Assembly: GCA_947166945.1 (NCBI GenBank)
Contig: CAMVGH010000005.1
Location: 1-32,000, forward strand
Reading direction: 5' to 3'
From: an uncultured Clostridia bacterium
GTDB lineage: Bacteria > Bacillota > Clostridia > Oscillospirales > Ruminococcaceae
Length of the DNA: 32,000 bases
Every line of letters begins with the position of its first letter. Positions within the stretch are counted from its first letter, which is position 1. A model generated the notes under the pieces. The model worked only from the letters and a program-made list of their open reading frames with translations. It was not told the origin of the DNA and did not search any database. The position numbers were made by a program, and so were the translations under genes. Positions 9,793-31,424 of this stretch are shown here, piece by piece.

Positions 9793-9794
9793 GA

Positions 9795-13452: not shown

Positions 13453-13478
13453 AGGCACTAACCTTTTTCATATATATC

Positions 13479-14051: not shown

Positions 14052-14072
14052 TTATATCATCTCCTCTTTTAA

Positions 14073-15169: not shown

Positions 15170-15187
15170 AGCTTATCTCCTTTATGC

Positions 15188-15310: not shown

Positions 15311-15311
15311 T

Positions 15312-15343
15312 AAAACGGCGGCCGCTCCGAGACAGCCGTTTTT
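15312..15343 (+). promoter_or_regulatory. Terminator-like hairpin in the 5' leader of the RR/HK operon (possible attenuator)
   Basis: AAAACGGC (15312-15319), 15-nt loop, GCCGTTTTT (15335-15343). A second GC-rich hairpin follows: GGAGCGG (15364-15370) / CCGCTCC (15381-15387). Confidence 0.35.
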
Positions 15344-15407
15344 ACGCAGGGGCGCGGGAGAATGGAGCGGCAGAGGCTCCCCGCTCCGGTCAGATATGGA
15401 GGAACAA

Positions 15408-16082: not shown

Positions 16083-17158
16083 GTAAGCTGTCACGGGAAG
16101 AAAGAAGGTCACGCATAGCACTGTCACTGCTTGTTACTGTTGTCATTTTTGCACTGCTTGTCGTGATAGGCGGAACGATCACCGGACTGGTCTTTCTGCT
16201 TATAAATCTTGGTTTTGTTTCGGACAACAGACTGCTCGAGCACGGAGCAGCAGTCGCCATTCTTGTTATCATCAGTGTTCTGCTCGGAGGAGCGTTGTCC
16301 TATCTTTTCAGCCGTATAACAATGAAGCCGGTAAACAGGATAATAGACAGCTTCAATCAGCTTGCTTCGGGAAATTTCAGCACACGGCTTGAATTTACAG
16401 GATCATGGGCAAAACACGCAACGGTCAGAGAGATAACCGACAGCTTCAATACAATGGCAGAGGAGCTTGAAAACACGGAAATGCTGCGTTCCGACTTTAT
16501 CAACAATTTCTCGCATGAGTTCAAAACTCCGATAGTGTCGATATCCGGGTTTGCTAAACTGCTCAAACACGGTAATCTCACTGAAGAACAGAAAGCCGAA
16601 TATATAAGCATCATAGCAGAGGAATCATCACGTCTCGCAAGTATGGCGACAAATGTTCTTGATCTGACGAAAGTGGAAAATCAGACCATACTCACCGGTC
16701 AGACCACATTCAACCTCTCCGAACAGATACGGGGCTGCATACTGCTGCTTGAAAGCAAATGGAGCGCAAAACACATCGAGCTGCACATAGATTTTGATGA
16801 GTATGATGTTTATGCCAACGAGGAAATGCTCAAGCAGGTATGGATAAATCTGATAGACAACGCGGTCAAGTTCTCGCCGGATTACGGTATCGTTTCGGTC
16901 GGGATATCGAAAAATAACGGGCTTATCACAGTCTCTGTCACCAACAGCGGCGTGGATATCCCCGCCGAATGTATTGACAGGATATTCAACAAGTTCTATC
17001 AGGCTGATGAGTCCCATTCCTCCGAGGGTAACGGCATAGGGCTTGCGATAGTGAAGCAGGCAGTGAAGCTGCACGGAGGTACGGTCATCGCGGACAGCAG
17101 AAAAGGCAGAACGACCTTTACGGTCATGCTGCCGGCGAAAAAGGAAGCAGATATATGA
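16079..17158 (+). CDS. Sensor histidine kinase (2 TM with short loop, HAMP, HisKA, HATPase)
   Basis: ATGA overlap with the RR stop. Two N-terminal TM helices separated by ~12 aa. HAMP-like PVNRIIDSFNQLASGNFSTRLE. H-box FSHEFKTPI. G-boxes NSGVDIP...GNGIGLAIVK. Confidence 0.9.
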   Translation: MSKLSREERRSRIALSLLVTVVIFALLVVIGGTITGLVFLLINLGFVSDNRLLEHGAAVAILVIISVLLGGALSYLFSRITMKPVNRIIDSFNQLASGNFSTRLEFTGSWAKHATVREITDSFNTMAEELENTEMLRSDFINNFSHEFKTPIVSISGFAKLLKHGNLTEEQKAEYISIIAEESSRLASMATNVLDLTKVENQTILTGQTTFNLSEQIRGCILLLESKWSAKHIELHIDFDEYDVYANEEMLKQVWINLIDNAVKFSPDYGIVSVGISKNNGLITVSVTNSGVDIPAECIDRIFNKFYQADESHSSEGNGIGLAIVKQAVKLHGGTVIADSRKGRTTFTVMLPAKKEADI

Positions 17159-18999: not shown

Positions 19000-19755
19000 T
19001 CACTTCTTCATCTCCAGGACATACTCGTCATACTCAATCTTACTGTCCAGCGCCTTAGTCCTCATCTCAATAGCATAATCAGCCCACTTCTGAAACTCCG
19101 CCTGCGTCATTTTCTTTTTGAGATACCGGGCATAGTGAGCCTTGTATGCCTTGTGATAAACGCTCCAGATCGGGTCGGTCTTTAGCTTGTCGTTGAACTT
19201 CTTCCGGTGTCCGAGGTCTCGGCAGCATTTGTCAGGCTGCCCTTTGACCGGACGCTTACAGTAGTTGGAGTAAAAGCCGCGTTCCAGTACAAAGTACCGT
19301 CCGCACAGATCACACTTGCGGGGCAGATAGCGGTTCTGCAATCCCTTGAACAATTCAATATACAGGAAACCTCCGATCGTCGAGAAGTGATAATTCTCGC
19401 AAAGCACGGAGGTTTTCTTGCGTTTGAGGACTTTGTAGGTAAGCGTCATAGTGCCGGACGGTATGAGTTTATCATAATTGCTTAATTTCTTGCTTGCTTC
19501 GCTGTTGAACTCGTCAAGCACTTCCGCAATTTCTTCGTTTGTCAGGAATTCCTCGCGGCTGTGTATCTTTTCTAGAAACGGCTCATAGGCACGCTTCACG
19601 CGCAGCAAGTCCTCAAAAATTGTGATGTAATGGTAAATGAAGTCCTTTAGCTCGGCATTGAGTTTCAGAACTTCGTCTATCATATCCGGTTCATCTATTT
19701 CGTCAAGCGGCTCGCCGACACGGAATGAAGTCAGCATACGGTCATGCTTATACAT
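19000..19755 (-). CDS. Hypothetical Cys-cluster protein of mobile-element type (DUF6076-like by recollection)
   Basis: 251-aa ORF. Contains CDLCGRYF...YC...CC..GHRKKF, a zinc-ribbon-like cluster. No convincing RBS. Its stop lies only 6 nt from the convergent HAD stop. Confidence 0.6.
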   Translation of the reverse strand: MYKHDRMLTSFRVGEPLDEIDEPDMIDEVLKLNAELKDFIYHYITIFEDLLRVKRAYEPFLEKIHSREEFLTNEEIAEVLDEFNSEASKKLSNYDKLIPSGTMTLTYKVLKRKKTSVLCENYHFSTIGGFLYIELFKGLQNRYLPRKCDLCGRYFVLERGFYSNYCKRPVKGQPDKCCRDLGHRKKFNDKLKTDPIWSVYHKAYKAHYARYLKKKMTQAEFQKWADYAIEMRTKALDSKIEYDEYVLEMKK

Positions 19756-19845: not shown

Positions 19846-20370
19846 TCAGGAACGTTGCTCTTTTTGAAAAAAATCGCGTTTTAAGCCCGTAAAGGTAATG
19901 GGAATGGAAAGTATATTACCCACCGATTCCGGACGATTTACAGAGGCAAAAATTACCGTTTTTCTTCCCGGATCCGTCCCGAAAATGAACAGTTCAAGGC
20001 AGCTTCCTTTAGCGGAAGCAAAATGCAGGAAGGAGGTCAGCATTGCAGGCACGTAATGCCGAGAACAGGTATTCATACGGAAGTCAGCCCAAAGTGCCGC
20101 AAGGATGCGGCTGTATGCGCTGTGCCGACATATTTCCTCACAAGGGAGATTATCGGCAATATGGCGGTAATGCTGTAAGAAACAGCCGTGTGCGAGGTTT
20201 CCGTACACGGCTGTTACATAACTTTTATAATTTAAATATCCGATTCGCTTTTGGATTTCTGTAATTGAACGAGTTGCATACTGAGCATAGAGATTTGTTA
20301 CAGCCGAAGGGGCACCGGGTATCGCGGTACTGTACACATCTGTTATATCATAACAGCCGGTATAAAGCAA
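19846..20370 (-). CDS. Hypothetical protein (weak call; TTG start, no RBS)
   Basis: It is the only long ORF in 19756-20472 on either strand. No recognisable motif. The stop codon sits in the loop of a hairpin (19832-19860). Confidence 0.3.
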   Translation of the reverse strand: MLYTGCYDITDVYSTAIPGAPSAVTNLYAQYATRSITEIQKRIGYLNYKSYVTAVYGNLAHGCFLQHYRHIADNLPCEEICRHSAYSRILAALWADFRMNTCSRHYVPAMLTSFLHFASAKGSCLELFIFGTDPGRKTVIFASVNRPESVGNILSIPITFTGLKRDFFQKEQRS

Positions 20371-20472
20371 GTATCATTTTACGGTATCAGCAGCGGAATC
20401 TTTATGCGGTGCCATGATGACGGAGCGATCGGTGCTTTTTCGGGATACTGACCTGCGGGGGAGTTCTTTTTG

Positions 20473-23400
20473 TCACGATATCATTGATCCGGCTTTCCTT
20501 ATAACTCGCTCATAAACTTCCATTGCATAATCATGCTTTTTCTTTATATCATCGAGCCGCCCTTCTTTTCCCGCACACTCAAGCTCGTAAGCAAGTTCGG
20601 AGAATCTGACCGCGCCTATCATCTTTGATGTGCTTTTGAGTCCATGTATCAGCACGGTATATCGTTTCAGATCACCGTTTTTCAATGCCGATTCAAGCTG
20701 TGCGGTCTTTTCCGTTTTTTCCTTGATATAGGTGTCAAGCATTTCACGGTAGAAGTCCTCTTCATTCATGCAATACTCCAGCCCGACATTTTTATCTATC
20801 ACATCATTTGTCTCATCGTCCTGCGTGTTTTCCTGCACCGGACCGGCGTGAGCCGTCTGTGCCGCGGCTGTATCATCTGCCGCGGCAGCAGGAACGGGAT
20901 CCGCAGAAGTCCCGCCGGTCCTGATGTCAGCGTCAGCGGTCTTATATCCGATTTTTTCGGCGGGCAGATACTTTTTCAGTATCATTTCAAGACTTCTGAC
21001 TTCAACCGGCTTCGACAGATAATCGTCGAAGCCTGCCGAAAGGTATTCCTCCTTCGCGCCGACTATGGCATTGGCGGTCATCATTATCACCGCAGTGTTC
21101 TCGCCCAGCAGACCTGCAGTTTCCATATTCTTCCGCGTTTCAAGACCGTCCATACCCGGCATCATGTGGTCAAGGAAGATAATGTCATACCTGTTCTGTG
21201 TAACCGCCTTTAAAGCGTCGCTGCCGCTGGCAACGATATCGACCTTTATGCCTGTGCGTTTGAGAAGTCCTTTCGCAACTTTAAGATTCATCATGTTGTC
21301 ATCTACGACAAGAACTCTCGCATCGGGAGCGTAGATATACTCCCGGCTGTTTTCATTGTGACGGGACAGGCGCAGACGCTCCTCATAGTCACCGATAGGC
21401 TCGTCGTCAACGACCTCCTGCACTATATCGAACCAGAACCGTGAGCCCTCGCCGTAAACGCTGTCAAGCTGAAGCTCGCTTCCCATCATGACGAGAAGCT
21501 TCTGAACGATGGAGATGCCGAGACCGGTACCCTCGATCGCCCGGTTTTTCTCGCTGTCAAGCCTTCTGAACGACTCGAAAAGCGCATCTCTGTCCTCGGG
21601 GCGGATACCGATACCGGTGTCCTGCACCTCGGTACGCAGCGTTATCCTGTCTCCGTTTCTGTCCGCAATAAGCATACGCAGGGTGACACTGCCCTTGGGA
21701 GTGTATTTGACCGCGTTTGTGAGTATATTGGTGATTATCTGTCTTATGCGCACATCATCGCCGTAAAGAGTTTTGGGCAGCTTCCTGTCGATCTCTGTCC
21801 TGAATTCAAGATTCTTCTGTTCGGCTCTTTCAAGTACCATATTGACCAGATCGTTTATCATCAGCGCGGTGTCATAACTTACAGGCACTATCTCCATTTT
21901 TCCGTCCTCTATCTTTGAAAAGTCGAGAATGCTGTTTATGAGCGTAAGCAGAGTGCGTCCGGCATTCTGTATGTTCTCGGAGTACTCCCTGATATCATCG
22001 CTGCTGCTCTCGCGCATTATCATTTCATTCATACCGAGAACCGCGTTTATCGGGGTGCGTATCTCATGCGACATCTGCGCCAGGAACTGCGATTTTGCCT
22101 GACCTGCTTTTTCGGCTTCCGCGGCGGAATTTTCGAGAGTTTTCCGCACCCGCTTCTGCCATACGATCATTATATGGAGCAGTGAGCCTGTTATCGCTAT
22201 ACCCGCGCCGAATATCACTATGAAGACAATGATGTAGCGTACAAGACTGCCGTATATCACATTCCAGTTTTTCGCGCAGACAATAGTGAAGCCGGAGGTA
22301 GGGTCGGGTACTGCATAAAAGGCTTTGTAGCTGCCGTCATAGTCTTTGATGATGACAGTGTCCCCGGCGAGCACCGCATTGAGATAACCCGCCTGTTCAA
22401 GTGTTACCACGTTGCTTTCCGACATCTGATACTCCGGAGCGGGGTGATTTATGATCTGCCCGTCCGCGTCCGCAAGAAACGCATACCCCTCATCGGTATA
22501 GCTCGAATCAAGTATGCCGGTAAGCTTGTCAAGGAAGAAATCTATTCCGAAAACACCTAAGAAATTGCCGGTCTTGTCATATACTCTTTTACTGAATGTG
22601 ACGCAGTAAGCTCCTATCTGTTCGTCATAATACGGGGCGGATACGGAGAAGCCGTCCTCTTTTTCCGACTCTATGGAATCTATGTACCACTGTCTTTCCT
22701 CAACGTGCCAGTCATCATCGGGCTCCCAGCCGTTGTTCATAATAACCGTATGCTCCGCGCGGGGATCGGTCATGTATGATACCGAGATATCATCATACTG
22801 CACGGTGATATCGTTCAGCCATTCAACGCATTTGTCATAATCACCGAGCATTTCCGGCTCGGCGGAAATAAAGCTCACAAACATATCCAGTACGCTTTTC
22901 TGCTCGACTATCCACGACTCAAGTTCTGATGTGTAATCTCCCGTTTCCTTTTCCATACGGGTATTGCCCCAGTTTATCATAAGTACCGTCGATATCGCGA
23001 TGCACAGTATCATCGTTACCGTGAGCAGCGCTATGATACCGGCGCAGGCATGCTTGTTGGTGCGGTCGGAGATGTCTGAATCGGCATGTACGTCTTTTAT
23101 TATCCTGCCGCTCTCATTCTCCTTTTTGTCGGCATCGGTATCTACCGTATAAAGCGAGGCAAGTGCGGATTTCATTTTGAGCGAGGACTCACGCAGACGC
23201 TCCATATAGACTTCCGGCTCGTCGCTTGACCGGAGAAGGCGGTAATCGCTGCGCTTCACTATGTCTTCCATAGGCGCACTTATTCTGGCAACCGCGCCGC
23301 TGACTGCGCTCTCGGTATATTTAAGGCGCTGCTCTATCCTTCCCCTGTAACGTATGCTGAAAATGTACAGCAGTATCATTCCCGCAATAAGGCAGAGATT

Positions 23401-25143
23401 TACCGCCGTATTCGCAATGATACCTGTCATATTGTTCCGGTAGAGAGCGGTCTGGCTGACTACGGACAGCAGATACCATTCATTCGCGGTACGGTTGTAG
23501 AAGACAACGCTGTCGGTACCGCTTATTTTTGTGTGGAAATTAAGTGAGCTCTCACCGGAGGAAAGTATTCTCTGGAATACGGCGGTGTACTGCGGCAGAG
23601 CTGCGGAAATAGGCTGACCTACCGCGGCAACATCGGCATAACCGACTATCTGACCGCTCCCGCTGACAATAAGGGCGTCACCGCCCGCAATACTTATCCT
23701 TGAAACGCTCTCCTGCAAGCCTGTCAGGTTGAAGTCGAGCGCGACTACAGTCGTTCCGTCGGACAGCAGTTCCGACACCGTGAAGCACATTTCTCCCGAC
23801 GCAAGATCAAGATATGGGGCAGTATAATAGATACTGCCGCTTCCCTTTTTGCGTGCGCCCTTGTACCAGTCGCGCTGAACAGGGTCAAAATCCTCCGGCA
23901 TCACAAAATCCGGAATGCTGTACCAGTCCTCGCCCGCGGCATAGACGTTCGTGCAGCTTCCGACGGAATTGTAGTCCTTGTTAGTTTTGAGATAGGCGTC
24001 GATCTCGTCTCCCGAAGCGTTTTCCTTGTAGAGCAGCTCCAGTCCCGACGCTATCTGTCTCGTGAGTATCTCCGCCTCGTACAGTGTCTGTTCAAGGTCT
24101 CCCGATACCGATTCGAGCTGTGCGCGTCCTATCGCGTCTGCCTGTCCGCTTATCATCGAGTAGAACAGCCGGAAGTTGAATACCAGCACCAAACTCATGG
24201 CAGCGGTGAACACCGCCAGCAGCGCATAATTGAAGCGCTTTGAAAGGATATGCTCCGTTCCCCTCCTGCTCTTTTCCTTCGGACTGTACGCAAAGAGCAG
24301 ACCGAAGCAGCCCCTGCCGCAATTGCAGGCTACAGCCGAGGAAGCCTTCACGAAATAAATATTGCGGAATATCGCGTATTTCCGGACTGTCTCCGCTATT
24401 TTTCCAAGCTCGGTGTCATCGAGTCCCGCATAGGTTATGAAAAGCGTGTCGGTCTCAATGTCATTCCTGCCGTGCAGCTGTCCGCGTATATAGGAGCGCA
24501 TCGACGCTTCGTGAAGTCCGTACACCATGCCGCCTACGGCGATCCTGCTTTTCTTCATCACAAGCATGGGACGCAGCAGCATTCTTTCACACAGCTTGCG
24601 CATGCCGCTGCCGAGCCTGCCGTTCCTGTTCATAAACTCAAGCTCGCGCACTATGAATGTCGATGATACCCTTGAAGCGTACTCACTGACCTCCGCACGG
24701 AGCTGCTGCATATTATGCTCTTCTCTTGCAAGCTCCGCCGCCCTGAGAACGACAAGTCCGAGGCCGCTGGAGATCTGTCCGGAGTCGAGAACATATACGC
24801 CGGGTACGCTTTCAGCCGCTTTTACCGCGTTGTCGTAGCCCTTGCTCGCATACCGCCCCATTGTTATGTGAAGTATCGCGGTATTGCCGCGTATGTTTTC
24901 TCTGAAAAAACTCAGATAATCCTCTTCCGAAGCAGCGTCCGACATAACAACATCGTCCGTTGTTTCCATATAATCAAGAAGATCGTCGGGGCTTATTTCC
25001 ACGCCGTCAAGAAACTGACCGTCCCGTGTCCTGACAATGTTGGGAAGGACTCTGACCGAATATTCCCTGACAAGCTCCGGCGGCAGGTCACAGACGCTGT
25101 CGGTGGTTATCAGTATGTGAGGCTGTTCCCTTTCTTCACTCAT
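20473..25143 (-). CDS. Hybrid sensor histidine kinase with N-terminal DegV domain: DegV - TM - dCache - TM - linker - TM - dCache - TM - HisKA - HATPase - REC - HPt
   Basis: 1556-aa ORF. Aa 10-287 align with the stand-alone DegV at 11426-12325 (ILITTDSVCDL; VLDSGQISSGLGLVVLRAAELA). Cache motifs RDWYKGA and ERQWYIDS, each between TM helices. H-box QMSHEIRTPINAV (His codon 22066-22068). G-boxes DTGIGI...GTGLGISIV. REC IIFLDHMMPGMDG. HPt HGLKSTSKMIGA. Confidence 0.9.
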   Translation of the reverse strand: MSEEREQPHILITTDSVCDLPPELVREYSVRVLPNIVRTRDGQFLDGVEISPDDLLDYMETTDDVVMSDAASEEDYLSFFRENIRGNTAILHITMGRYASKGYDNAVKAAESVPGVYVLDSGQISSGLGLVVLRAAELAREEHNMQQLRAEVSEYASRVSSTFIVRELEFMNRNGRLGSGMRKLCERMLLRPMLVMKKSRIAVGGMVYGLHEASMRSYIRGQLHGRNDIETDTLFITYAGLDDTELGKIAETVRKYAIFRNIYFVKASSAVACNCGRGCFGLLFAYSPKEKSRRGTEHILSKRFNYALLAVFTAAMSLVLVFNFRLFYSMISGQADAIGRAQLESVSGDLEQTLYEAEILTRQIASGLELLYKENASGDEIDAYLKTNKDYNSVGSCTNVYAAGEDWYSIPDFVMPEDFDPVQRDWYKGARKKGSGSIYYTAPYLDLASGEMCFTVSELLSDGTTVVALDFNLTGLQESVSRISIAGGDALIVSGSGQIVGYADVAAVGQPISAALPQYTAVFQRILSSGESSLNFHTKISGTDSVVFYNRTANEWYLLSVVSQTALYRNNMTGIIANTAVNLCLIAGMILLYIFSIRYRGRIEQRLKYTESAVSGAVARISAPMEDIVKRSDYRLLRSSDEPEVYMERLRESSLKMKSALASLYTVDTDADKKENESGRIIKDVHADSDISDRTNKHACAGIIALLTVTMILCIAISTVLMINWGNTRMEKETGDYTSELESWIVEQKSVLDMFVSFISAEPEMLGDYDKCVEWLNDITVQYDDISVSYMTDPRAEHTVIMNNGWEPDDDWHVEERQWYIDSIESEKEDGFSVSAPYYDEQIGAYCVTFSKRVYDKTGNFLGVFGIDFFLDKLTGILDSSYTDEGYAFLADADGQIINHPAPEYQMSESNVVTLEQAGYLNAVLAGDTVIIKDYDGSYKAFYAVPDPTSGFTIVCAKNWNVIYGSLVRYIIVFIVIFGAGIAITGSLLHIMIVWQKRVRKTLENSAAEAEKAGQAKSQFLAQMSHEIRTPINAVLGMNEMIMRESSSDDIREYSENIQNAGRTLLTLINSILDFSKIEDGKMEIVPVSYDTALMINDLVNMVLERAEQKNLEFRTEIDRKLPKTLYGDDVRIRQIITNILTNAVKYTPKGSVTLRMLIADRNGDRITLRTEVQDTGIGIRPEDRDALFESFRRLDSEKNRAIEGTGLGISIVQKLLVMMGSELQLDSVYGEGSRFWFDIVQEVVDDEPIGDYEERLRLSRHNENSREYIYAPDARVLVVDDNMMNLKVAKGLLKRTGIKVDIVASGSDALKAVTQNRYDIIFLDHMMPGMDGLETRKNMETAGLLGENTAVIMMTANAIVGAKEEYLSAGFDDYLSKPVEVRSLEMILKKYLPAEKIGYKTADADIRTGGTSADPVPAAAADDTAAAQTAHAGPVQENTQDDETNDVIDKNVGLEYCMNEEDFYREMLDTYIKEKTEKTAQLESALKNGDLKRYTVLIHGLKSTSKMIGAVRFSELAYELECAGKEGRLDDIKKKHDYAMEVYERVIRKAGSMIS

Positions 25144-27193
25144 CTGTGTCCTCCCGCAAAAATTGTTCCAGAACTCTGTGCATATTTTTCATGGATACCG
25201 GCTTTGAAAGGAATCCGTCAAAGCCCATACTGAGGAAATTGTCCCTCGCGCCGCTCATGGCGTTGGCGGTAAGCGCCACTATCGGTCTGTGCCTGTAATA
25301 GCCGCCGCTCAGATTCCGTATCGCTTTCATAGCGTCCGTACCGTTCATATCCGGCATCATGTGGTCCATAAATATGATATCAATGTTCTCGGAGCTGCAT
25401 ATACCGATAGCCTCCGGACCGCTCGCCGCCGAAAATACTCTTAATCCGAACCTTTGCAGCATGCCCTTTGCCACCATTATGTTCATCGGCTCGTCGTCCA
25501 CCACAAGAGCCTTCTTACCGGGCGGCAGAAGGGACAGCTCATCTTCGGTCTCAACGTCCATTCTTGCGGTCTGCGCTCCGGGACCGGATCGCTTTAAGAA
25601 GCCCACTACCGCCGGAAGATACACAGGCTTTCTGATGATGCTGACAGAACTGTCGGCGGGAAGCGTGAACTGGCCGCCCGAAAATACACATACCCAGCAT
25701 TGCTTTGCGATCCTTTCAAAATATGACGGGTCACTGCCATATTCGGCTTCGGCAATAAAAATGTGCGTTACGCCGCCCTTTTCCATCCGTTCTCTGAGCT
25801 GTGCCAGCGAGGTCACAACCGTTACGTCAACGCCCAGTTCTTCATGGACATGATCCACTGTCTTGTAATAGTACTCTCCCACTTCGCGACGCGCGTATTT
25901 CGACCTGTCAAACCAGCATACCGCATGATATTTTCCCGCACCGGAGATGCCTATGCAGCAAGTCCGGTCAGCCACCTTCTGCGGAACGGTGACGTGAACG
26001 TGAGTCCCCTTGCCGCTGCTTTCAAGTTTTACAAAACCGTGCATTGAACGCACTATCCCGTGGACTATCGCAAGTCCGAGACCAAGCCCGCCCCTGCGCC
26101 GCTCGGTGCTGTCATCGGCTGCAAAAGTGCCGCTGAACAGGCGGTTCCTGTATTTGTTCTCGATGCCCACGCCCGTATCATATACGTCTATATTGAGGTT
26201 GATATCATCTCCCTGCGGACGGGAGCTGACATAAAGATATCCGCCGCCGGACTCCGTGAATTTCACCGCGTTGTCAAGCAGACATTCGAGTATCTTGCGG
26301 AGACGCTTTGCATCGCCGATAAGCACACGCGGTACGGCAGGAGATAAATCGACTGCAAAATCCGCGCCTATGTATGACTTGGTAAAAACGTTCCGTATCG
26401 TGTCATAGATCACCGACTCCGTCTCGTACTCGCTTTCCGCGATACGGAAACGGTCAGTCTGAAGTTCGGAGAATATAAGTATGTCGCTTATCTGGCGCTG
26501 TATGCGCTTTCCGGCACTGTACAGCGCGTACAGGTCATCACTGTATTTTTCCGGAAGACCTGCGTCAAGCATCAGCTCGCTCAGTCCGCAGATCACGTTT
26601 ATGGGCGTTCTGAGCTCGTGGGACATATTGGCAAGAAACTGCTTTGTATCATTTTTAGCGTCTGCCGCTTCCCGGCGCAGTTCGTCCTTTTCATTCCCGT
26701 CCTTGCGGCCGATCAGGATAAAATATACGGCTATCCCCGCCGCGAACGAAAGGCAGAAGATCCCGAGAGCTATTCTTGAATAGACCGTAGTTGGAGTATC
26801 GGCATTCAGATATCCGGTTATAAAAATATTCACGGCGATGTATATAGGGTATGACAGAACCGTCAGCAGAACAAGCTTGACATCATTCTGCCGCGAGAGT
26901 ATAACTATAAGCAGGCACAGTAATATCGGTATATCGGTTATGGGTATGCCGTGAAGAGCATAGAACATCAGAACTCCGAGAATGACGATGATATACAGGT
27001 ACAGCCTGACCGCGGGCTTTCCCGTGTCCGTAAAATGCATCACCCAGCATAAAGCGCACGCACCGGTTATGATGGGTATAGCCGGAAGTTCCCACTGTGA
27101 CAGTACGATTATTATATCAAACAGCACCGTCATCACGGAAAACATACCGAGTAAGATCATGTGAAATGATGTTTCAAGATCCCTGCCGCGCAT
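25136..27193 (-). CDS. Polytopic hybrid histidine kinase (5-6 TM - HisKA - HATPase - receiver-like insert lacking the Asp - REC)
   Basis: 685-aa ORF. Hydrophobic for its first ~160 aa. H-box NMSHELRTPINVI. G-boxes DTGVGI...GGLGLGLAIV. Aa ~410-535 form an alpha/beta-like segment (HIFIAEAEY where a receiver would have D). C-terminal REC IIFMDHMMPDMNG. 8-nt overlap with the downstream gene. Confidence 0.9.
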   Translation of the reverse strand: MRGRDLETSFHMILLGMFSVMTVLFDIIIVLSQWELPAIPIITGACALCWVMHFTDTGKPAVRLYLYIIVILGVLMFYALHGIPITDIPILLCLLIVILSRQNDVKLVLLTVLSYPIYIAVNIFITGYLNADTPTTVYSRIALGIFCLSFAAGIAVYFILIGRKDGNEKDELRREAADAKNDTKQFLANMSHELRTPINVICGLSELMLDAGLPEKYSDDLYALYSAGKRIQRQISDILIFSELQTDRFRIAESEYETESVIYDTIRNVFTKSYIGADFAVDLSPAVPRVLIGDAKRLRKILECLLDNAVKFTESGGGYLYVSSRPQGDDINLNIDVYDTGVGIENKYRNRLFSGTFAADDSTERRRGGLGLGLAIVHGIVRSMHGFVKLESSGKGTHVHVTVPQKVADRTCCIGISGAGKYHAVCWFDRSKYARREVGEYYYKTVDHVHEELGVDVTVVTSLAQLRERMEKGGVTHIFIAEAEYGSDPSYFERIAKQCWVCVFSGGQFTLPADSSVSIIRKPVYLPAVVGFLKRSGPGAQTARMDVETEDELSLLPPGKKALVVDDEPMNIMVAKGMLQRFGLRVFSAASGPEAIGICSSENIDIIFMDHMMPDMNGTDAMKAIRNLSGGYYRHRPIVALTANAMSGARDNFLSMGFDGFLSKPVSMKNMHRVLEQFLREDTDE

Positions 27194-27196
27194 ACG

Positions 27197-29557
27197 TCAT
27201 ACCTCTCTCATTTTATAATCCACATCTTCGTCTATCATTGCGAGCATTATGTCCGCAAACCTCGGGTCAAACTGTGTACCCCGTCCTTTTTCGATCTCGC
27301 TTCGGACTTTTTCCTGAGACATCACGTCACGGTAGCTTCTGCGGCTCGTCATAGCGTCGTAAGCATCTGCTACGGCGATTATCCTTGCTTCCTCGGGAAT
27401 ATCTCCGCCTTTCAGACCGTCCGGATAGCCTCTGCCGTCATAGCGCTCATGATGCCACCTTGCACCTGTCGCAAGCTTCGGCATCTCCTGTATATTTTTC
27501 AGTATCCGTGCGCCCATTACCGGGTGGGTCTTGATGATCTCATATTCTTCGTCTGTGAGACGAGCAGGCTTGTTGATCACAGCGTCGGGAATACCAATCT
27601 TGCCTACATCATGCAGAAGTCCCATCATATAGATGTCGCTCTGCCGCTGCGCCGGATATCCCGCGCGCCTTGCTATCTCCATTGAATACTCCGCGACTCT
27701 GCCGGAATGTCCGTTTGTATAGGTATCCTTTGCGTCGATCGCGTCGGCAAGAGACTTTACAACGTGCAGAAACAAAGCTCTGTTCTCACCGGTTTTGCGT
27801 TCCACTTCAGCGCTAAGAGAGCGCTGAAGGGTAGTCAGCTCAATAGTATGCCTTACACGAAGCAGAAAGATCTCCGGAGCAAACGGCTTTTTGATAAAAT
27901 CCATAGCGCCGAGGGAAAGACCTTTGCTCTCCGACTCCGTATTATCATCGGCGGTAAGGAATATTACCGGTATCTCCGATATTTCCCGCTCCATGCTGCG
28001 GAGCTTTTTAATTGTTTCAAATCCGTCCATGTCGGGCATTTTTATATCGAGAAGAATAAGATCGGGAATGCTTTTTTCGACATGATCAAGCAGATCCTGA
28101 CCGGATCTGAGCGTGGTGACACCGTATCCTGCTTTGTTCAGTATATGTTCTGCCATGCGCAGATTCGGGTAATCGTCATCAACAACAGCTATGCTGATCT
28201 TGTCGGAATGCTTCACATGATCGTCCGTGCTGCCGACGAACTCCGTTTCAAACGACGCAAGGAGCTTGTCGCCGTGCAGCTCACACCAGCTGCGGAGAAG
28301 ATTGCCGATGACCTTTTCCGTCGCTTCCCTGCGGACATCTGTGAGAAACACAAAATACCTGTCCGAGCGGTTTCGCATGAAAATGTCGGATTTCCGCAGA
28401 GATTCCCTTATATGATTTCCGAATTCGGTACAAAGCTCCTTGTATTCGTCCTCATCAGTACCCGCGTTCCGGGACAGCGTAAACATCACTTTGCAGGCTG
28501 TCCGGTTATTGCGTATGATGTACCTCATCACATATCTGTAAACATACGCGAAAGATTCGCTGTCGAGCTGCAATGCGACATTCGGTATAGAGCGTTCGCC
28601 GAGTATCTCCGAAACACTGTGGATATCAAGGATATCATTTTCTTCATCGTCCGGGAAATCATCTGCGCTGTACAGCGCACAGCCATGCTTTCCGTGCCGC
28701 TTTACGCTGTAAAGCGCCTTGTCCGCAAGCTTCAGAAGAGAATCATAGTCGTTGCCGTGATCCGGCACCGCCACAGCTCCTATCGACGCGCCGATAGGTA
28801 TCTGCATATCTTCGCCCATAAGCTTCTTTGCGTCTCTTATCATGTCCTCATTTATTTTCGCCGTGATCTCCGAAAGCCTTTCATGGCTGAGCTTTTCCGG
28901 GCAGAATGAAACAAACTCGTCGCCTCCGAACCTTGCCACCCTGCTCTCTTTCGGAAGGGCGGCGGAAACTATCCGCGAAAAGCTTATCAGCACCTCATCG
29001 CCGGTCTCATGACCGTAGATATCATTTACAAGTTTGAACGAATCAAGGTCGATCATCAGCATACAGCCCGATTCAGATGAACACAGCCGTGAAAATTCCA
29101 CGCCGGCAGCTCCCTTGTTCAGAAAGCCCGTGAGTTTGTCGATCGTCGCCTCGTTCTTGAAGTTCAGCATTTTTTCCTGCTTTGATAAGACATTGTTTAT
29201 GCGGCGCAGAAAAACTTCCGGAACAAACGGTTTTTTTATGTAATCCGATACGCCGGCTTCAAATCCGTGAGTCTCGGCGTCTGCACCCTCGGCAGCGGTA
29301 AGAAAAACGACCGGGGTCTCCTCCCACCCGTTTGCCTTTTCAGTCTCGCGCAGCTTTTCGAGTGCTTCAAAGCCGTCCATTTCCGGCATGCTTATGTCAA
29401 GCAGTATCAGATCGGGTGTGCCGTTCACGGCTACGCAGTCAAGAAGCTCCTTGCCCGAACTCAAAGACGTAACGCGCATATCGTTCCGGCTTAGTATATA
29501 TCCTGCTACCTTCAGATTTAAGATGTCATCATCAACAACTATTACCCACTTTTCCAT
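27197..29557 (-). CDS. Dual-receiver c-di-GMP turnover protein: REC - GGDEF - degenerate GGDEF-like - REC - HD-GYP
   Basis: 786-aa ORF. REC1 LILLDISMPEMDG. Intact RFGGDEFVSF (nt 28913-28927). Middle segment SDIFMRNRSDRYFVFL (GGDEF replaced by RSDRY). REC2 LILLDIKMPDMDG. HD-GYP motifs LLHDVGKIGIPD and HHERYDGRGYPDGL. Confidence 0.9.
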   Translation of the reverse strand: MEKWVIVVDDDILNLKVAGYILSRNDMRVTSLSSGKELLDCVAVNGTPDLILLDISMPEMDGFEALEKLRETEKANGWEETPVVFLTAAEGADAETHGFEAGVSDYIKKPFVPEVFLRRINNVLSKQEKMLNFKNEATIDKLTGFLNKGAAGVEFSRLCSSESGCMLMIDLDSFKLVNDIYGHETGDEVLISFSRIVSAALPKESRVARFGGDEFVSFCPEKLSHERLSEITAKINEDMIRDAKKLMGEDMQIPIGASIGAVAVPDHGNDYDSLLKLADKALYSVKRHGKHGCALYSADDFPDDEENDILDIHSVSEILGERSIPNVALQLDSESFAYVYRYVMRYIIRNNRTACKVMFTLSRNAGTDEDEYKELCTEFGNHIRESLRKSDIFMRNRSDRYFVFLTDVRREATEKVIGNLLRSWCELHGDKLLASFETEFVGSTDDHVKHSDKISIAVVDDDYPNLRMAEHILNKAGYGVTTLRSGQDLLDHVEKSIPDLILLDIKMPDMDGFETIKKLRSMEREISEIPVIFLTADDNTESESKGLSLGAMDFIKKPFAPEIFLLRVRHTIELTTLQRSLSAEVERKTGENRALFLHVVKSLADAIDAKDTYTNGHSGRVAEYSMEIARRAGYPAQRQSDIYMMGLLHDVGKIGIPDAVINKPARLTDEEYEIIKTHPVMGARILKNIQEMPKLATGARWHHERYDGRGYPDGLKGGDIPEEARIIAVADAYDAMTSRRSYRDVMSQEKVRSEIEKGRGTQFDPRFADIMLAMIDEDVDYKMREV

Positions 29558-29651
29558 ATAGCAATCCTTTCTGAAACAAGCTGCTGTCTGTTTCGGGAGC
29601 CTTCTTTACTGCGTCATGCAGTTACATAAATATCTCCTGAACTGTTACGTT

Positions 29652-30299
29652 TCATACCTGCCTGTACATCGCAAGCATCATAGCTTTGAGCGTTTCAAGC
29701 TCCTTCATATCGTCAGATCCCGTTTCCGGCTTATATACAAGCCCCACCGCGTATCTTGTGACCGCCGCAAGCATGAGATGAAGCGTTGTTGAGAACATTT
29801 CCGCTTCCGGTATGTCGGTACGGACCGTCTTATCCGTCTTTGCCCGCTCATATATCATACGGAAGTACTCTCCGAAATTATCTATCATGCCATAGTATGT
29901 TTCAAGAGCAGTTTTTTCTGTTCCTGCACTTTCCACATACATATTGAACATCTGATTGAAACGCAGAAGATCCTTTTTCTCACGGTACAGCATCAGAAAT
30001 CCGTCAAGGTAGAATTCGAGGATTTCCGCCGCTGTCATGCCGTCAATGTTTGCTTCCTCACGCCTCTTGCTGTCCAGTTCCCGGATCTCATTCCATTTTT
30101 TTATAGCTACTTCGATCACAAAACCCTGTTTTTTTTCGAAATAACGGTAAAGTGTTGCTATCCCGCAGCCTGCCGCATCAGCGATATTCTGCATAGATAC
30201 GGACTCTATGCCTCTCTTTGTAAAGATCTCAAATCCTTTTTCAAGCAGAACAGTCCGCCTTGCAGCCATCAGTTCCGCATCAGATTCCCTGCTCCACAT
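29652..30299 (-). CDS. TetR/AcrR family transcriptional regulator
   Basis: HTH SMQNIADAAGCGIATLYRYFEKKQ. The start is placed at ATG 30297-30299 (MWSRESD...) because the first ATG of the track ORF (30351-30353) lies inside the predicted promoter. Confidence 0.85.
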   Translation of the reverse strand: MWSRESDAELMAARRTVLLEKGFEIFTKRGIESVSMQNIADAAGCGIATLYRYFEKKQGFVIEVAIKKWNEIRELDSKRREEANIDGMTAAEILEFYLDGFLMLYREKKDLLRFNQMFNMYVESAGTEKTALETYYGMIDNFGEYFRMIYERAKTDKTVRTDIPEAEMFSTTLHLMLAAVTRYAVGLVYKPETGSDDMKELETLKAMMLAMYRQV

Positions 30300-30343
30300 A
30301 CTCTTACCGCCTTTTGATGATCCATTGTCTATATTTGATAAAC

Positions 30344-30372
30344 ATTTTATCATAGGGTACGGAATTTGTCAA
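30344..30372 (-). promoter_or_regulatory. Sigma-A promoter of the TetR gene (TTGACA-N17-TAAAAT)
   Basis: Reverse strand: TTGACA (30367-30372), 17 nt, TAAAAT (30344-30349). Confidence 0.5.
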
Positions 30373-30545: not shown

Positions 30546-30574
30546 TTGACAAAAACGGGTTTTACGGATATAAT
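30546..30574 (+). promoter_or_regulatory. Consensus sigma-A promoter of the ABC permease/ATPase operon
   Basis: TTGACA (30546-30551), 17 nt, TATAAT (30569-30574). It lies ~75 nt upstream of ATG 30651 (RBS AAAGGAGA). Confidence 0.6.
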
Positions 30575-30650
30575 GTGAGCTGTAATCATATATTGCCTAT
30601 ATGTTTACTATGTTTATGCCGGCCGCACCTGAAAAAAGGAGACATATAAA

Positions 30651-31424
30651 ATGAAAAAGAACATAACTGCGATACTGCTCGGACTTATCGTCCCTGCTGT
30701 CATCATAGCTCTCTGGTGGTATGTGACGGAATTCACAGCCATACCGCAGACGATACTCCCGAAAATAAGCTCGGTAGCAGAACGCATAGGTGTGATGTGG
30801 GAAAAGGGACAGATACAGAGCGATCTTCAGATAAGCCTGACGCGTGTTCTTCAAGGTTATCTCGTTTCAGCCGTGCTTGGCGTGACACTGGGAACTGTCA
30901 TGGGAATGTCGCAGACTGCAAAGAAGATGCTTCAGCCTGTACTTACAGTTGTAAGACAGATACCGATAATCGCGTGGATACCGCTTCTGATACTATGGTT
31001 CGGCATCGGCGAGAGCTCAAAGACAGTAGTTATTGTAATAGCATCGTTCTTTCCGATAATGATAAATACACAGGCGGGAATAAGCGGCACGCCGCTCGAA
31101 TATGTCGAAGTCGCAAAACTGTACAGACTTGGTGCGCTCCGTACTTTCTTCCGGGTCTATCTGCCTCACGCGCTTCCGCATATTCAGACAGGACTCAAAC
31201 TCGGTCTCGGCGTGTCATGGATGGCTGTAGTCGCGGCTGAACTCATAGCATCGACGTCGGGTATAGGTTACAGTATGAGCTATGCGCGCACCCTGATGCA
31301 GTCGGACGTTGTAATAATATGTATGCTCCTCATCGGCATTGTCGGTATCATTATGGACAAGGCAGTTTCCTTGATCTTTGACGCGCTTACGCCGTGGGAG
31401 AAAAAAAGAAGGGAGAGGGGTTAA
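30651..31424 (+). CDS. ABC transporter permease, NitT/TauT (sulfonate/nitrate/taurine) family
   Basis: 257-aa ORF with 6 predicted TM helices. The conserved loop ...EYVEVAKLYRLGALRTFFRVYLPHALPHI and overall pattern are typical of SsuC/TauC-like permeases. Confidence 0.85.
   Translation: MKKNITAILLGLIVPAVIIALWWYVTEFTAIPQTILPKISSVAERIGVMWEKGQIQSDLQISLTRVLQGYLVSAVLGVTLGTVMGMSQTAKKMLQPVLTVVRQIPIIAWIPLLILWFGIGESSKTVVIVIASFFPIMINTQAGISGTPLEYVEVAKLYRLGALRTFFRVYLPHALPHIQTGLKLGLGVSWMAVVAAELIASTSGIGYSMSYARTLMQSDVVIICMLLIGIVGIIMDKAVSLIFDALTPWEKKRRERG

Follow-up and report, generated by a model that had tools for sequence, protein, structure and literature searches.

Hybrid-kinase relays that feed c-di-GMP enzymes are already known. 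The closest described example is RpfC/RpfG, the DSF system of Xanthomonas, in which a hybrid kinase of HisKA-HATPase-REC-HPt architecture conveys a fatty-acid signal to a REC-HD-GYP phosphodiesterase. Larger networks, such as LuxN/LuxQ/CqsS-LuxU of Vibrio and those of the GacS/RetS/LadS type, gather several hybrid kinases with different inputs.

We analysed a window of DNA (the whole stretch of 32,000 nucleotides) from a rumen/gut Clostridium. It encodes three tightly coupled large minus-strand genes, preceded by a gene for a TetR-type regulator:

20473..25143 (-): ORF of 1556 aa, hybrid kinase DegV-TM-dCache-TM-linker-TM-second PDC/Cache-TM-HisKA-HATPase-REC-HPt, hereafter the DegV kinase (Pfam, transmembrane segments)
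25136..27193 (-): ORF of 685 aa, hybrid kinase HK685, 5-6 TM sensor-HisKA-HATPase-pseudo-receiver (probable)-REC (Pfam, hydropathy)
27197..29557 (-): ORF of 786 aa, the effector, REC1-GGDEF-degenerate GGDEF-REC2-HD-GYP (Pfam, homologues, motifs)
29652..30353 (-): ORF of the TetR gene

The locus shares with RpfC/RpfG the combination of an HK-REC-HPt sensor with a REC-HD-GYP regulator, and orthologues of its DegV kinase are paired with REC-REC-HD-GYP proteins lacking the GGDEF domain. It differs in having two kinases instead of one, in the input, where a cytoplasmic DegV domain and Cache domains take the place of the N-terminal membrane sensor of RpfC, and in the effector, which carries a REC-GGDEF part and a dead GGDEF in addition to what is found in RpfG. 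No enoyl-CoA hydratase-type gene that could be a DSF synthase (rpfF/rpfB-like) is present in the annotated parts of the window or of the related loci. There was also no match to the RpfC equivalog; the best NCBIfam matches, TorS, BarA, and LuxQ, did not reach their cut-offs. Judging from these comparisons, the resemblance lies in domain logic and not in orthology. NCBI names some of the short DegV kinases 'RpfC'.

With the LuxU- and Gac-type networks, the locus would share the convergence of several hybrid-kinase inputs on a single HPt and a single response regulator. Here, however, the HPt is fused to a kinase, the output is a c-di-GMP enzyme instead of a transcription factor, and the kinases share an operon with the regulator.

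Organization of the gene cluster

The three large genes are translationally coupled: a 3-nt gap separates the effector and HK685 genes (TGA-cgt-ATG, with AGAGAGG about 8 nt upstream), and the HK685 and DegV kinase genes overlap by 8 nt (ATGAGTGA, with GGGAGGA upstream), so the spacing proposed in the first-pass annotation holds on the sequence, with ribosome-binding sites present. That annotation had also counted two HisKA histidines, one HPt histidine, and four receiver aspartates, with no DNA-binding output domain in the three big genes and with an intact GGDEF and an intact HD-GYP, both in the first gene, as sole effector domains. Pfam and the motifs in the translations agree with all of this: the H-boxes read MSHEIRTP and MSHELRTP, the HPt motif HGLKSTS, and the receiver motifs LLDISMP, LLDIKMP, FLDHMMP, and FMDHMMP. 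All phospho-acceptor and catalytic residues in the cluster are intact.

Two features flank the large genes:

29558..29651 (-): 94-nt spacer between the TetR and effector genes, with no terminator and no convincing promoter
20174..20215 (-): likely terminator of the unit, a strong hairpin with an 11-bp stem followed by UUUCUU (sequence and fold)

Our promoter scan of the spacer returned no site scoring at least 9/12, in line with the earlier reading, and the spacer shows neither a terminator nor significant structure (MFE z +0.88). Terminator-like sites inside the unit are at chance level (14 vs 11.2 ± 2.9 in shuffles). The hairpin and U-tract downstream of the last gene are missed by the simple terminator scan because the loop is longer than the scan allows.

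An effector with two receivers and a degenerate GGDEF domain

The domains of the effector are as follows:

29198..29548 (-): REC1, Asp54 (Pfam and motif)
28688..29149 (-): GGDEF diguanylate-cyclase domain, RFGGDEF, intact active site (Pfam and motif)
28202..28669 (-): degenerate GGDEF-fold domain, residues 297-452 (AF2, Foldseek, conserved motif)
27863..28192 (-): REC2, Asp504 (Pfam and motif)
27260..27754 (-): HD-GYP phosphodiesterase domain (Pfam HD_5 6e-37)

Pfam recognises the two REC domains (1.5e-53), the first GGDEF (1e-33), and HD_5 (6e-37, 127 bits). More than 120 clusters of homologues are 58-99% identical to the effector across its full length, and in the 120 homologues the catalytic residues vary little or not at all. 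The HD, HHE, and GYP motifs, invariant in this set, predict an active phosphodiesterase. The turn of the first GGDEF domain, GG(D/E)EF in general and RFGGDEF here, is conserved in 118-120 of the 120. This domain has no RxxD I-site, the sequence five residues upstream of the turn being PKES; such a site is common in GGDEF cyclases, not obligatory.

The first-pass annotation had overlooked the domain at residues 297-452. In Foldseek, the top matches to its AF2 model (pLDDT 78.5) are with few exceptions GGDEF domains (TM ~0.6, E as low as 1e-5), while hhalign alone gives no significant match. RNRSDRYF replaces the GGDEF turn, and five residues upstream, at the position of the I-site, lies RKSD (R388-D391), which is conserved in the 120 homologues; the RxxD is also kept in split proteins. 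On the evidence of the model, we regard this domain as a catalytically dead GGDEF fold, and the motifs indicate that it keeps the inhibitory-site RxxD that the active GGDEF lacks, with I-site and active site split over tandem domains. The REC1-GGDEF part matches the PleD family and DgcR, both below cut-offs. Retention of RxxD in a dead GGDEF is reminiscent of the degenerate-GGDEF receptors PelD and PopA, and PelD and PleD are among the structural matches. Unlike in PleD, WspR, PelD, or PopA, the two sites are here divided between neighbouring domains and the polypeptide runs on into REC-HD-GYP.

Two hybrid kinases with different inputs

Both kinases have the features of hybrid HisKA-class enzymes: the H-box histidine, the N, G1, and G2 boxes, and a fused receiver with its acceptor aspartate. 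Their sensory and accessory regions are:

26699..27193 (-): polytopic membrane input domain of HK685 (hydropathy, conservation)
25526..25972 (-): receiver-like CheY-fold domain of HK685, residues 408-556 (AF2, Foldseek)
23464..24156 (-): dCache_1 sensor domain of the DegV kinase, first extracytoplasmic (Pfam, topology)
22234..22980 (-): PDC/Cache-like sensor of the DegV kinase, second extracytoplasmic (Pfam MCP-like_PDC_1 3e-16, topology)

In HK685, Pfam identifies HisKA, HATPase_c, and REC; an HPt is absent. The membrane input domain has no Pfam match, and its residues E5, W34, W50, H53, R63, Y78, D87, and R140 are conserved in at least 15 of 19 HK_A sequences. The middle domain, likewise overlooked in the earlier reading, is modelled by AF2 with a pLDDT of 86.7. 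Foldseek matches it to CheY-like folds, among them receivers and the CikA pseudo-receiver (TM 0.5-0.6, weak E-values), and hhalign places HIFIA opposite IIFMD (E 0.004, probability 8.7%). It is probably a pseudo-receiver, apparently without a phospho-acceptor aspartate, the structural support being modest.

The DegV kinase matches DegV (2e-38), dCache_1 (1e-32), MCP-like PDC (3e-16), HisKA, HATPase_c, REC, and Hpt (2.6e-7), and hydropathy places its transmembrane segments at 304-322, 579-597, 703-721, and 971-989. Its complete architecture was found in only 8 homologue clusters.

A DegV domain fused to a histidine kinase

The N-terminal domain of this kinase belongs to the DegV/FakB family:

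24289..25116 (-): cytoplasmic DegV domain (FakB-like fatty-acid-binding fold) with Ser68, Ser100, Arg176, Asn274 (Pfam, TIGR00762, PDB, residue survey)

It matches the profile at full length and above the curated cut-offs: 132.7 bits to PF02645 (cut-off 27; positions 2-278 of 280) and 146 bits to TIGR00762 (cut-off 99.7). Matches to DegV/FakB chains in the PDB reach 3e-23. Like FakB/DegV proteins (4X9X, 2DT8, 6MH9), it has the full-length fold, the DS motif, and equivalents of Ser93 and, in the window, Arg170.

In FakB2, Thr61, Ser93, and His266 reportedly form a triad of hydrogen bonds to the carboxylate. At these positions, checked in FakB2 numbering against the 4X9X alignment, the window has Ser68, Ser100, and Asn274. 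Thr61 is replaced by Ser in 108/108 fused DegV domains and His266 by Asn in 105 of the 108, Ser93 being kept, whereas canonical stand-alone representatives show T-S-R-H at the surveyed positions. By this pattern, kinase-fused DegV domains form a distinct subfamily with Thr61→Ser and His266→Asn. Both replacements retain hydrogen-bonding side chains; the change of His266 could nonetheless mean that the ligand is something other than a fatty acid.

The fused forms also differ from FakB in their genetic context: in 174 related loci, there is no FakA gene within 10 kb. The window does encode a FakB-FakA-PlsY operon of the canonical kind, including a normal DegV protein, but separately (9163-12445), ~9 kb away. 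Arg170 (Arg176 in the window) is presumably the residue needed for FakA-dependent phosphorylation.

The domain usually sits elsewhere in the protein. It follows the receiver directly in 93 of the 108 fused homologues, and among the long fused representatives in 45 of 54, and so occupies a slot normally taken by an HPt or an output domain; N-terminal forms are a minority. One might therefore imagine DegV as a chemical partner of the relay, exchanging phosphoryl groups between the receiver aspartate and a held fatty acyl carboxylate or acyl-phosphate, and in this way either producing acyl-phosphate or reading its pool in phospholipid synthesis. Receivers do autophosphorylate from small acyl phosphates. 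Arg170 is said to lie next to the acyl-phosphate in FakB2, and it is retained in the window, in 15/15 N-terminal forms, and in 54/93 C-terminal ones. Yet about 40% of the C-terminal forms have Gln, Lys, or another residue there, with wide variation among 50% clusters; the window's DegV domain lies at the far end from the receiver in a 1556-aa protein, with four transmembrane segments between it and the kinase core; PlsX/PlsY genes are as absent as FakA within 10 kb in the 174 loci; and such chemistry has no precedent. We consider it highly improbable. If true, it would wire the acyl-phosphate pool of membrane lipids into two-component and c-di-GMP control through a new phosphotransfer element.

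We favour instead a sensory role for the domain. In Staphylococcus aureus, the fatty-acid status handled by Fak/DegV proteins influences the two-component kinase SaeS (Ericson et al. 2017, PMC5539427). That link is indirect, through the effect of the free fatty-acid pool on SaeS, whereas here the DegV fold is a covalent part of the kinase. DegV-kinase fusions occur throughout rumen and gut Clostridia: one search gave over 100 clusters at the 90% identity level and another gave dozens at the 50% level; we found no literature on them and no curated family that covers them. An input of the DegV/FakB fold has not been described before for a histidine kinase. If it binds fatty acids, these kinases would directly and covalently link lipid status to second-messenger or receiver signalling, and free unsaturated fatty acids are likely to be a major stress for such rumen/gut Clostridia.

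Origin of the HPt domain

The HPt and the site of its fusion are located at:

20548..20745 (-): HPt domain (HGLKSTS), the only one of the cluster (Pfam Hpt 2.6e-7)
20869..20880 (-): junction of an in-frame ~2.6-kb deletion, with ~10 nt of microhomology, ACAGCCGCGG (comparison with sister strains)

The domain scores 31.2 bits against PF01627 (cut-off 24.6) and has the conserved histidine in HGLKSTS. It is ~98% identical to the C-terminus of HK871 in L006 (the related loci carry L numbers) and ~50% identical to the native HPt of DegV-kinase orthologues. Comparison with sister strains indicates that the DegV kinase acquired the HPt of a third kinase, encoded next to it, through an in-frame deletion of ~2.6 kb; those strains retain the third kinase. 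The statement that only the DegV kinase carries an HPt is accurate for this locus, but it apparently describes a recent accident in which the third kinase was lost; in the common type of module the HPt is on the other kinase. This chimeric origin had gone unnoticed in the earlier reading. That the HPt is foreign to the DegV kinase counts against a relay through it.

The fusion might be an assembly artefact, the true genome having the sister-strain arrangement with the third kinase. The source is a metagenome-assembled contig, and of the 15 cluster members listed, only the one from this contig ends in the chimeric C-terminus. Set against this, a k-mer collapse would need more than the ~10 nt common to both sides of the junction, the reading frame continues through the fusion into an intact HPt, and the flanks on both sides are 96-98% identical to L006, which together make an artefact very unlikely. 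Such a strain-level swap shows that these relays can be rewired freely.

Conservation and diversity of the module

More than 90 loci of Lachnospiraceae, Oscillospiraceae, and Ruminiclostridium contain the trio of response regulator, polytopic hybrid kinase, and DegV-fused hybrid kinase, which therefore forms a real unit. Co-occurrence in related genomes, which the first-pass annotation had named as a check, holds for the three large genes and not for TetR, found in one other of the 174 loci. In 7/7 related loci with an N-terminal DegV, the DegV kinase gene directly follows a kinase gene of the HK685 type, overlapping it where checked, and the HK_A/HK_B-DegV pair is adjacent in 69/69 informative metagenome loci. 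The gene directly before the pair, in the same orientation, encodes a protein with a receiver in nearly all loci. The trio appears to be one version of a widespread module that has seemingly never been studied.

The c-di-GMP output varies more. A c-di-GMP enzyme comes first in the window, L173, L001-3, L090, L007, L009-12, L014, L016, L017, L087, and L088; in L024 a REC-GGDEF-dGGDEF gene follows the kinase pair rather than preceding it. Modules of the largest subfamily sampled begin with a gene for a stand-alone receiver of ~120 aa; among metagenome loci with room upstream, such a receiver comes first in 58 of 60. The proposal that c-di-GMP turnover is the output is correct for this locus, where it is the only enzymatic one, but it does not extend to the module in general. 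Fully read modules have at least one HPt, on either kinase; the exception is L090, where none was detected on either.

Effectors of this family are found much more widely than the kinase pair, and some orthologues have no kinases next to them (L174, L015), so other kinases may also feed the effector. This raises the question of whether kinases and effector are mere neighbours, the pair signalling mainly to a receiver protein elsewhere in the genome and the effector being driven by other kinases or acetyl phosphate. Such genomes encode many hybrid kinases (five in a row in L004), and most sampled pairs adjoin a bare receiver, not a c-di-GMP enzyme. But translational coupling in the window, the same-orientation receiver gene directly upstream of the pair at nearly every locus, and the relatedness of the terminal receivers (41-49% identical among themselves versus 38-40% to kinase receivers) argue for dedicated partners, and we judge independence quite unlikely.

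The TetR gene

The gene upstream of the trio and its promoter are:

29652..30299 (-): TetR/AcrR-family regulator, 215 aa (Pfam TetR_N 7e-12)
30344..30372 (-): sigma-70-type promoter of the TetR gene, TTGACA-17-TGnTAAAAT (11/12 match, extended TG)

The protein has an N-terminal TetR helix-turn-helix (TetR_N 45.4 bits vs 24). We place its start at 30299 because the promoter (30372-30344) overlaps the ATG at 30353; relatives are publicly annotated at 215 aa. The promoter, TTGACA-N17-TAAAAT in the first-pass annotation, is confirmed, with an extended TG. It is possibly the promoter of the whole four-gene unit.

A homologue exists only in the sister contig L173 (98.7% identical) and is absent from the other 172 of the 174 loci; the gene is lineage-specific and lies outside the conserved module. 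The claim that TetR is the first gene of the unit survives only for this lineage, where it moves with the block and may therefore be co-transcribed. In a stronger version, TetR would be an integral first gene that senses acyl-CoA or a fatty acid alongside DegV. The 94-nt gap, free of terminator and promoter, would fit, as would the four consecutive accessions in a related metagenome-assembled genome. The block common with L173 begins at 30403, ~30 nt upstream of the -35 box, beyond which the flanks differ (ABC permease in the window, HAD hydrolase in L173). L090 has a TetR-family gene at the equivalent position, but it is unrelated. The absence of homologues from 172 loci weighs against integration, and a 10/12 promoter-like site within the TetR gene (29905-29877) could drive the effector operon independently. 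Moreover, TetR faces a divergent ABC-permease gene whose promoter is perfect and whose start is spanned by a palindrome, the classical TetR arrangement. The suggested acyl-CoA or fatty-acid ligand found no support: similarity to KstR, FasR, and MftR is confined to the helix-turn-helix and far below family cut-offs, and the ligand domain matches no named subfamily and no NCBIfam family above cut-off. We regard an integral, lipid-sensing TetR as unlikely.

A probable multi-input phosphorelay

The order of regulator, HK_A, and DegV kinase is conserved in distant relatives and the genes are coupled, which makes a shared phosphorelay a reasonable reading. The best explanation, which we hold to be probable, is one operon of three large genes, possibly transcribed from the TetR promoter, that encodes a multi-input His-Asp-His-Asp relay. 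The branched relay proposed earlier is partly supported, by coupling, conserved gene order, and intact residues; its c-di-GMP output is not general to the module, and its HPt placement apparently arose recently.

HK685 would sense through its polytopic membrane domain, and the DegV kinase through two Cache/PDC domains outside and the DegV domain inside, the latter most likely responding to a fatty acid or a related carboxylated lipid. The four transmembrane segments between the DegV domain and the kinase core speak against this view of DegV, as does the replacement of Arg170 in about 40% of C-terminal fused DegV domains. Each kinase would autophosphorylate and pass the phosphoryl group to its own receiver, and both would then converge on the one HPt, located at the C-terminal end of the DegV kinase, if partners and direction are as we propose. 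From there, the phosphoryl group would reach the effector's two receivers, which are 49% identical to each other, and shift the balance between GGDEF cyclase and HD-GYP phosphodiesterase, in a sense that may differ between the domains. The dead GGDEF, if its RxxD binds c-di-GMP, probably adds feedback.

The effector is unusual in that a dead GGDEF with a product-binding motif is flanked by a cyclase on one side and an HD-GYP on the other, both equipped with a receiver of their own; this design may be a built-in c-di-GMP homeostat. Phosphorylation of both receivers would turn on synthesis and hydrolysis together unless they respond in opposite ways.

Gene organisation and transcription signals

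By the names that near-identical proteins carry, the source is a Ruminiclostridium/Oscillospiraceae-like MAG. The ORF call placed the four minus-strand genes where the first-pass annotation had put them, and Pfam searches gave them the following domains.

Genes of the cluster and their Pfam domains
29652-30299, minus strand: regulator; TetR_N
27197-29557, minus strand: effector, 786 aa; REC, GGDEF, REC, HD_5 (HD-GYP)
25136-27193, minus strand: HK685, the second kinase, 685 aa; HisKA, HATPase_c, REC
20473-25143, minus strand: DegV kinase, 1556 aa; DegV, dCache_1, MCP-like PDC, HisKA, HATPase_c, REC, Hpt

The 3-nt gap between effector stop and HK685 start reads TGAcgtATG, with AGAGAGG upstream, and the 8-nt overlap between HK685 and the DegV kinase is ATGAGTGA, with GGGAGGA upstream. 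The two H-boxes, the HPt histidine, the four receiver aspartates, and the GGDEF, HD, HHE and GYP motifs are all present in the translations. HK685 probably contains an additional pseudo-receiver: the model of residues 408-556 (pLDDT 86.7) has a CheY-like α/β fold that Foldseek matches, with modest scores and E-values, to receiver domains and to the CikA pseudo-receiver. The profile alignment with receivers is weak (hhalign E 0.004, probability 8.7%), and its register puts Ala at the acceptor-Asp position. The count of four aspartates still holds.

The promoter proposed for the TetR gene (TTGACA-17-TAAAAT, 30372-30344) was recovered. It covers the first ATG of the ORF, which upholds the start at 30299, and public annotation of the relatives gives an agreeing length of 215 aa. 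The 94-nt TetR-effector spacer contains, as first thought, no convincing promoter (none with ≥9/12 matches), and scanning and folding found no terminator or significant structure in it. Terminator-like sites within the unit do not exceed the chance rate. A strong hairpin with a U-tract tail lies ~260 nt past the last stop codon (~20174-20215, from sequence and fold). It falls in a stretch of ~630 nt past the DegV kinase (19846-20472, minus strand) with no recognisable gene, where a 174-aa ORF starting at TTG gave no Pfam match; a DUF6076 gene follows at 19000-19755. An Rfam scan found no c-di-GMP riboswitch or other RNA in the window.

An effector with a second, degenerate GGDEF domain

Residues 297-452 of the effector lack a Pfam match. 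Their AlphaFold2 model (mean pLDDT 78.5, core >90) retrieves GGDEF domains almost exclusively from the PDB (Foldseek E to 1e-5, TM ~0.6). In the structural register, the GGDEF turn is replaced by RNRSDRYF, and the motif RKSD (R388-D391) stands exactly five residues upstream, at the position of the RxxD inhibitory site. This RKSD is kept in 120/120 effector homologues, and RxxD (RKSD, RKTD or RRSD) is also found in proteins in which the REC-GGDEF part and this middle domain form a separate gene. In the active GGDEF, PKES or PxGS takes the place of RxxD. The alignment of the middle domain with the effector's own GGDEF has the expected register without being significant (hhalign probability 0.2%), and the assignment therefore rests on the structural model and Foldseek. 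The predicted architecture is thus REC1 - GGDEF - dead GGDEF with I-site - REC2 - HD-GYP, in which the dead GGDEF is a candidate c-di-GMP-binding regulator.

A conserved kinase module with exchangeable output

Orthologues of the 1556-aa kinase form only eight clusters, at 53-94% identity. In every case (loci L001-L006), a 682-692-aa orthologue of HK685 overlaps and directly precedes the DegV-kinase orthologue. The first gene in L001-L003, upstream of the HK685 orthologue, encodes a 462-aa REC-REC-HD-GYP protein; further hybrid kinases take its place in L004. That locus (1-16548) has at least six consecutive hybrid histidine kinase genes on one strand (851+, 867, 1526, 682, 1547 with DegV, and a 616+-aa Cache kinase), and its 16.5 kb include no response-regulator output gene.

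The effector family is much larger than this set and tightly conserved, with more than 120 clusters at 58-99% full-length identity in Lachnospiraceae, Oscillospiraceae, Ruminiclostridium and Saccharofermentanaceae. Using the effector as query, we scanned a genome collection and assigned domains by BLAST; the scan yielded at least ~15 close relatives, whose co-occurrence numbers are samples and not a census. Two kinases follow the effector in eight loci (L007, L009-L012, L014, L016, L017), the same gene order occurs in L087 and L088 and, in part, in L089, and L024 shows the reverse placement, with a REC-GGDEF-dead GGDEF gene after the kinase pair. Among these loci the effector is either whole or split into REC-GGDEF-middle domain and REC-HD-GYP proteins. 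The first kinase, of the HK685 type (HK_A), has a polytopic membrane domain (TM6), HisKA, HATPase, a middle domain, REC and HPt. The second (HK_B) has a five-TM domain, HisKA, HATPase, REC and DegV. In this common form, unlike in the window, DegV is C-terminal, right after the receiver, and the HPt is on the other kinase. DegV has this C-terminal position in 93 of 108 DegV-kinase homologues and is N-terminal in the other 15.

A metagenome scan with fused-DegV patterns gave 80 loci, whose DegV domains are 72-99% identical to one reference, so that they represent one large subfamily and not independent samples. HK_A or its HPt end lies directly 5' of HK_B in all 69 loci with any upstream sequence. 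Of the 60 with room for a first gene, 58 have a stand-alone receiver of ~120 aa in that place. A c-di-GMP domain is absent from all of these metagenome loci, and likewise from L091 and L092. The stand-alone receivers are closer to the effector receivers (41-49% identity) than to the kinase receivers (38-40%). The conserved core is thus a receiver protein, HK_A and the DegV kinase, with an exchangeable first-gene output. The view that c-di-GMP turnover is the only output holds for the window and at least 16 further loci examined, but not for the family as a whole, in which most of the sampled kinase pairs adjoin a bare receiver. The analysis shows gene coupling, motifs, folds and synteny.

In a variant module (L090 5014-13147), an unrelated TetR-family gene precedes the genes for a REC-HD-GYP-GGDEF protein of 678 aa, an HK685-like kinase of 696 aa and, last, a DegV-5TM-HK-REC kinase of 1048 aa. 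The C-terminal part of the 678-aa protein contains an RxxD (RTVD...YSSMQYL) and is possibly a degenerate GGDEF, which would reverse the order of the catalytic domains.

Several modules have an extra dCache-HK-REC-HPt kinase beside the DegV kinase (L011 6546-9260; L016 12321-15104; downstream genes of L113, L117 and L120). Its kinase core shares 55-65% identity with the core of the window DegV kinase, against 45-49% for HK_B, which suggests that the 1556-aa protein arose by the joining of a DegV domain onto this third type of kinase.

A chimeric HPt domain, probably left by a recent deletion

The first-pass annotation placed a single HPt on the DegV kinase. This is true of the window, but not as an ancestral trait: comparison with the sister-strain locus L006 (96% nucleotide identity) points to a recent deletion, with ~2.6 kb (L006 5535-8180) missing from the window. 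Residues 1 to ~1427 of the window kinase correspond to the L006 DegV kinase. The next gene in L006 encodes a hybrid kinase of 871 aa with a multi-TM input, and it is the C-terminus of this protein that the last ~129 window residues, with the entire HPt, match at ~98% identity; across the regions they share, identity between the two L006 kinases is only ~50%. The junction (~20869-20880) is in frame with ~10 nt of microhomology, and the window parts from its sister contig L173 at 20854. Among the 15 cluster members listed, only the window's own sequence has the chimeric C-terminus. It could have been produced by an assembly error, but this is less likely because the microhomology is too short for k-mer collapse. 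The deletion would have removed the DegV kinase's own HPt together with the sensor, kinase core and receiver of the third kinase. Sister strains, which retain the ~2.6 kb, thus have three kinases and two HPt domains.

Probable sensory inputs of the two kinases

The DegV domain has the full-length DegV/FakB fold (Pfam 2e-38; TIGR00762 above cut-off; PDB FakB/DegV chains to 3e-23). We take the FakB2-defining residues to be Thr61, Ser93, Arg170, Arg202 and His266, with Arg202 docking FakA. Their positions were mapped and checked on the 4X9X alignment. The corresponding residues of the window domain are Ser at 61 and 93, Arg at 170 and Asn at 266. Across 108 fused DegV domains, Thr61 is replaced by Ser in all, Ser93 is kept in 105 and His266 is replaced by Asn in 105. 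Arg170 persists in every one of the 15 N-terminal forms but in just 54 of the 93 C-terminal ones; the loop with position 202 does not align reliably, and the references differ among themselves there. When 1.84 billion representatives were searched, 218 proteins reached E ≤ 1e-30. The best 150 of these include 45 C-terminal and 9 N-terminal fusions, and among them Asn266 marks fused DegV and T-S-R-H the canonical stand-alone proteins. These signatures indicate that the fused domains form a distinct subfamily, with hydrogen-bonding side chains retained at the carboxylate site. Most simply, they would be inputs that bind a lipid or fatty acid; a conserved role in FakA-type phosphorylation is made less likely by the variability of Arg170. 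Some 20 stand-alone DegV proteins of ~280-300 aa (P0241-P0389) carry the fused-type signature (Ser61, Ser93, Arg/Lys170, Asn266) instead of T-S-R-H; they could be fragments of genes or unfused representatives of the sensor subfamily. DegV is mid-protein in other fusions (e.g., of 726, 816 and 856 aa).

Hydropathy predicts for the DegV kinase a cytoplasmic DegV, TM1, an external dCache, TM2, a ~100-aa cytoplasmic linker, TM3, a second external PDC, TM4 and the kinase core. Several polar and aromatic residues of the HK_A membrane domain are conserved (E5, W34, W50, H53, R63, Y78, D87, R140), which suggests that the domain is a real intramembrane sensor.

The TetR gene and the upstream boundary

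Only one of the 174 fetched loci, L173 (98.7% identity with the window across 9.6 kb), has a homologue of the window TetR; the TetR-family gene upstream of the L090 module was rejected as an orthologue, as similarity is limited to the HTH. The block common to L173 and the window begins at window 30403, ~30 nt upstream of the TetR -35 box, and beyond it the window has an ABC permease (30651-31424, plus strand) where L173 has a HAD hydrolase (L173 1-1125). This synteny break marks a strain-level rearrangement breakpoint at the cluster edge. Together with the consecutive accessions of the four genes in related MAGs, the block start and differing flanks argue that the TetR gene travels with the block in the window/L173 lineage. 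This, and the spacer lacking terminator and promoter, favours the proposal that TetR is the first gene of the unit, while its rarity among the loci and a 10/12 promoter-like site within the gene speak against it; co-transcription with the three large genes is possible.

The TetR gene is divergent from the permease gene, whose promoter region (30546-30608, plus strand) has a perfect sigma-70 consensus (TTGACA-17-TATAAT, 12/12). After this consensus, an 11-nt inverted repeat, GTAATCATATA-N5-TATATGTTTAC, spans the point where the transcript should begin; the repeat is a putative TetR operator. The suggested fatty-acid ligand for TetR found no support: the NCBIfam similarity to KstR, FasR and MftR covers the HTH only and is far below cut-offs.

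A model of the relay and its relation to known systems

All steps of phosphotransfer, the ligand of DegV and the positive or negative direction of regulation are inferred. In the most likely mechanism, two hybrid kinases (three in the ancestor), receiving intramembrane, extracytoplasmic (Cache/PDC) and cytoplasmic (DegV) inputs, would autophosphorylate and hand the phosphate to their own receivers. One HPt would serve both kinases and phosphorylate the receivers of the effector; at 49% identity to each other, REC1 and REC2 are both plausible targets. The balance between cyclase and phosphodiesterase would then shift, with possible product feedback through the dead GGDEF.

In RpfC/RpfG, a fatty-acid-responsive HK-REC-HPt kinase feeds a REC-HD-GYP protein. 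This is the closest functional analogue of the cluster, which differs in its inputs and has no linked DSF synthase. The convergence of several kinases on one HPt recalls LuxN/LuxQ-LuxU. The relay logic is thus familiar. Three features appear to be undescribed: the family of DegV inputs, the distribution of active site and I-site over two GGDEF domains, and the dual-receiver cyclase/HD-GYP enzyme. In NCBIfam, no equivalog reaches its cut-off for the cluster proteins, and only the DegV and GGDEF domain models pass. No study of DegV-kinase fusions emerged from our search of the literature on DegV/FakB with histidine kinases and on GGDEF/HD-GYP in Lachnospiraceae. Fatty-acid handling is tied to a kinase, indirectly only, in the Fak-SaeRS system of S. 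aureus (PMC5539427).

Other lipid and two-component genes of the window

The window also encodes a canonical lipid operon (9163-13458), and a normal fatty acid kinase is therefore present beside the kinase-fused DegV.

Genes of the lipid operon
12343-13458, minus strand: MGDG-synthase-like glycosyltransferase
11426-12445, minus strand: stand-alone DegV/FakB (Pfam 3e-64)
9795-11474, minus strand: FakA (Dak2, FakA_M, FakA_C)
9163-9792, minus strand: PlsY

We rejected a functional link between the cluster and this FakA-FakB-PlsY operon 9 kb off: none of the 174 related loci has FakA or PlsY nearby, and the proximity is thus incidental. A separate, classical two-component pair lies at 15273-17158 (plus strand), in which an OmpR-type regulator (REC, Trans_reg_C) and a HAMP-HisKA-HATPase kinase overlap by 4 nt.
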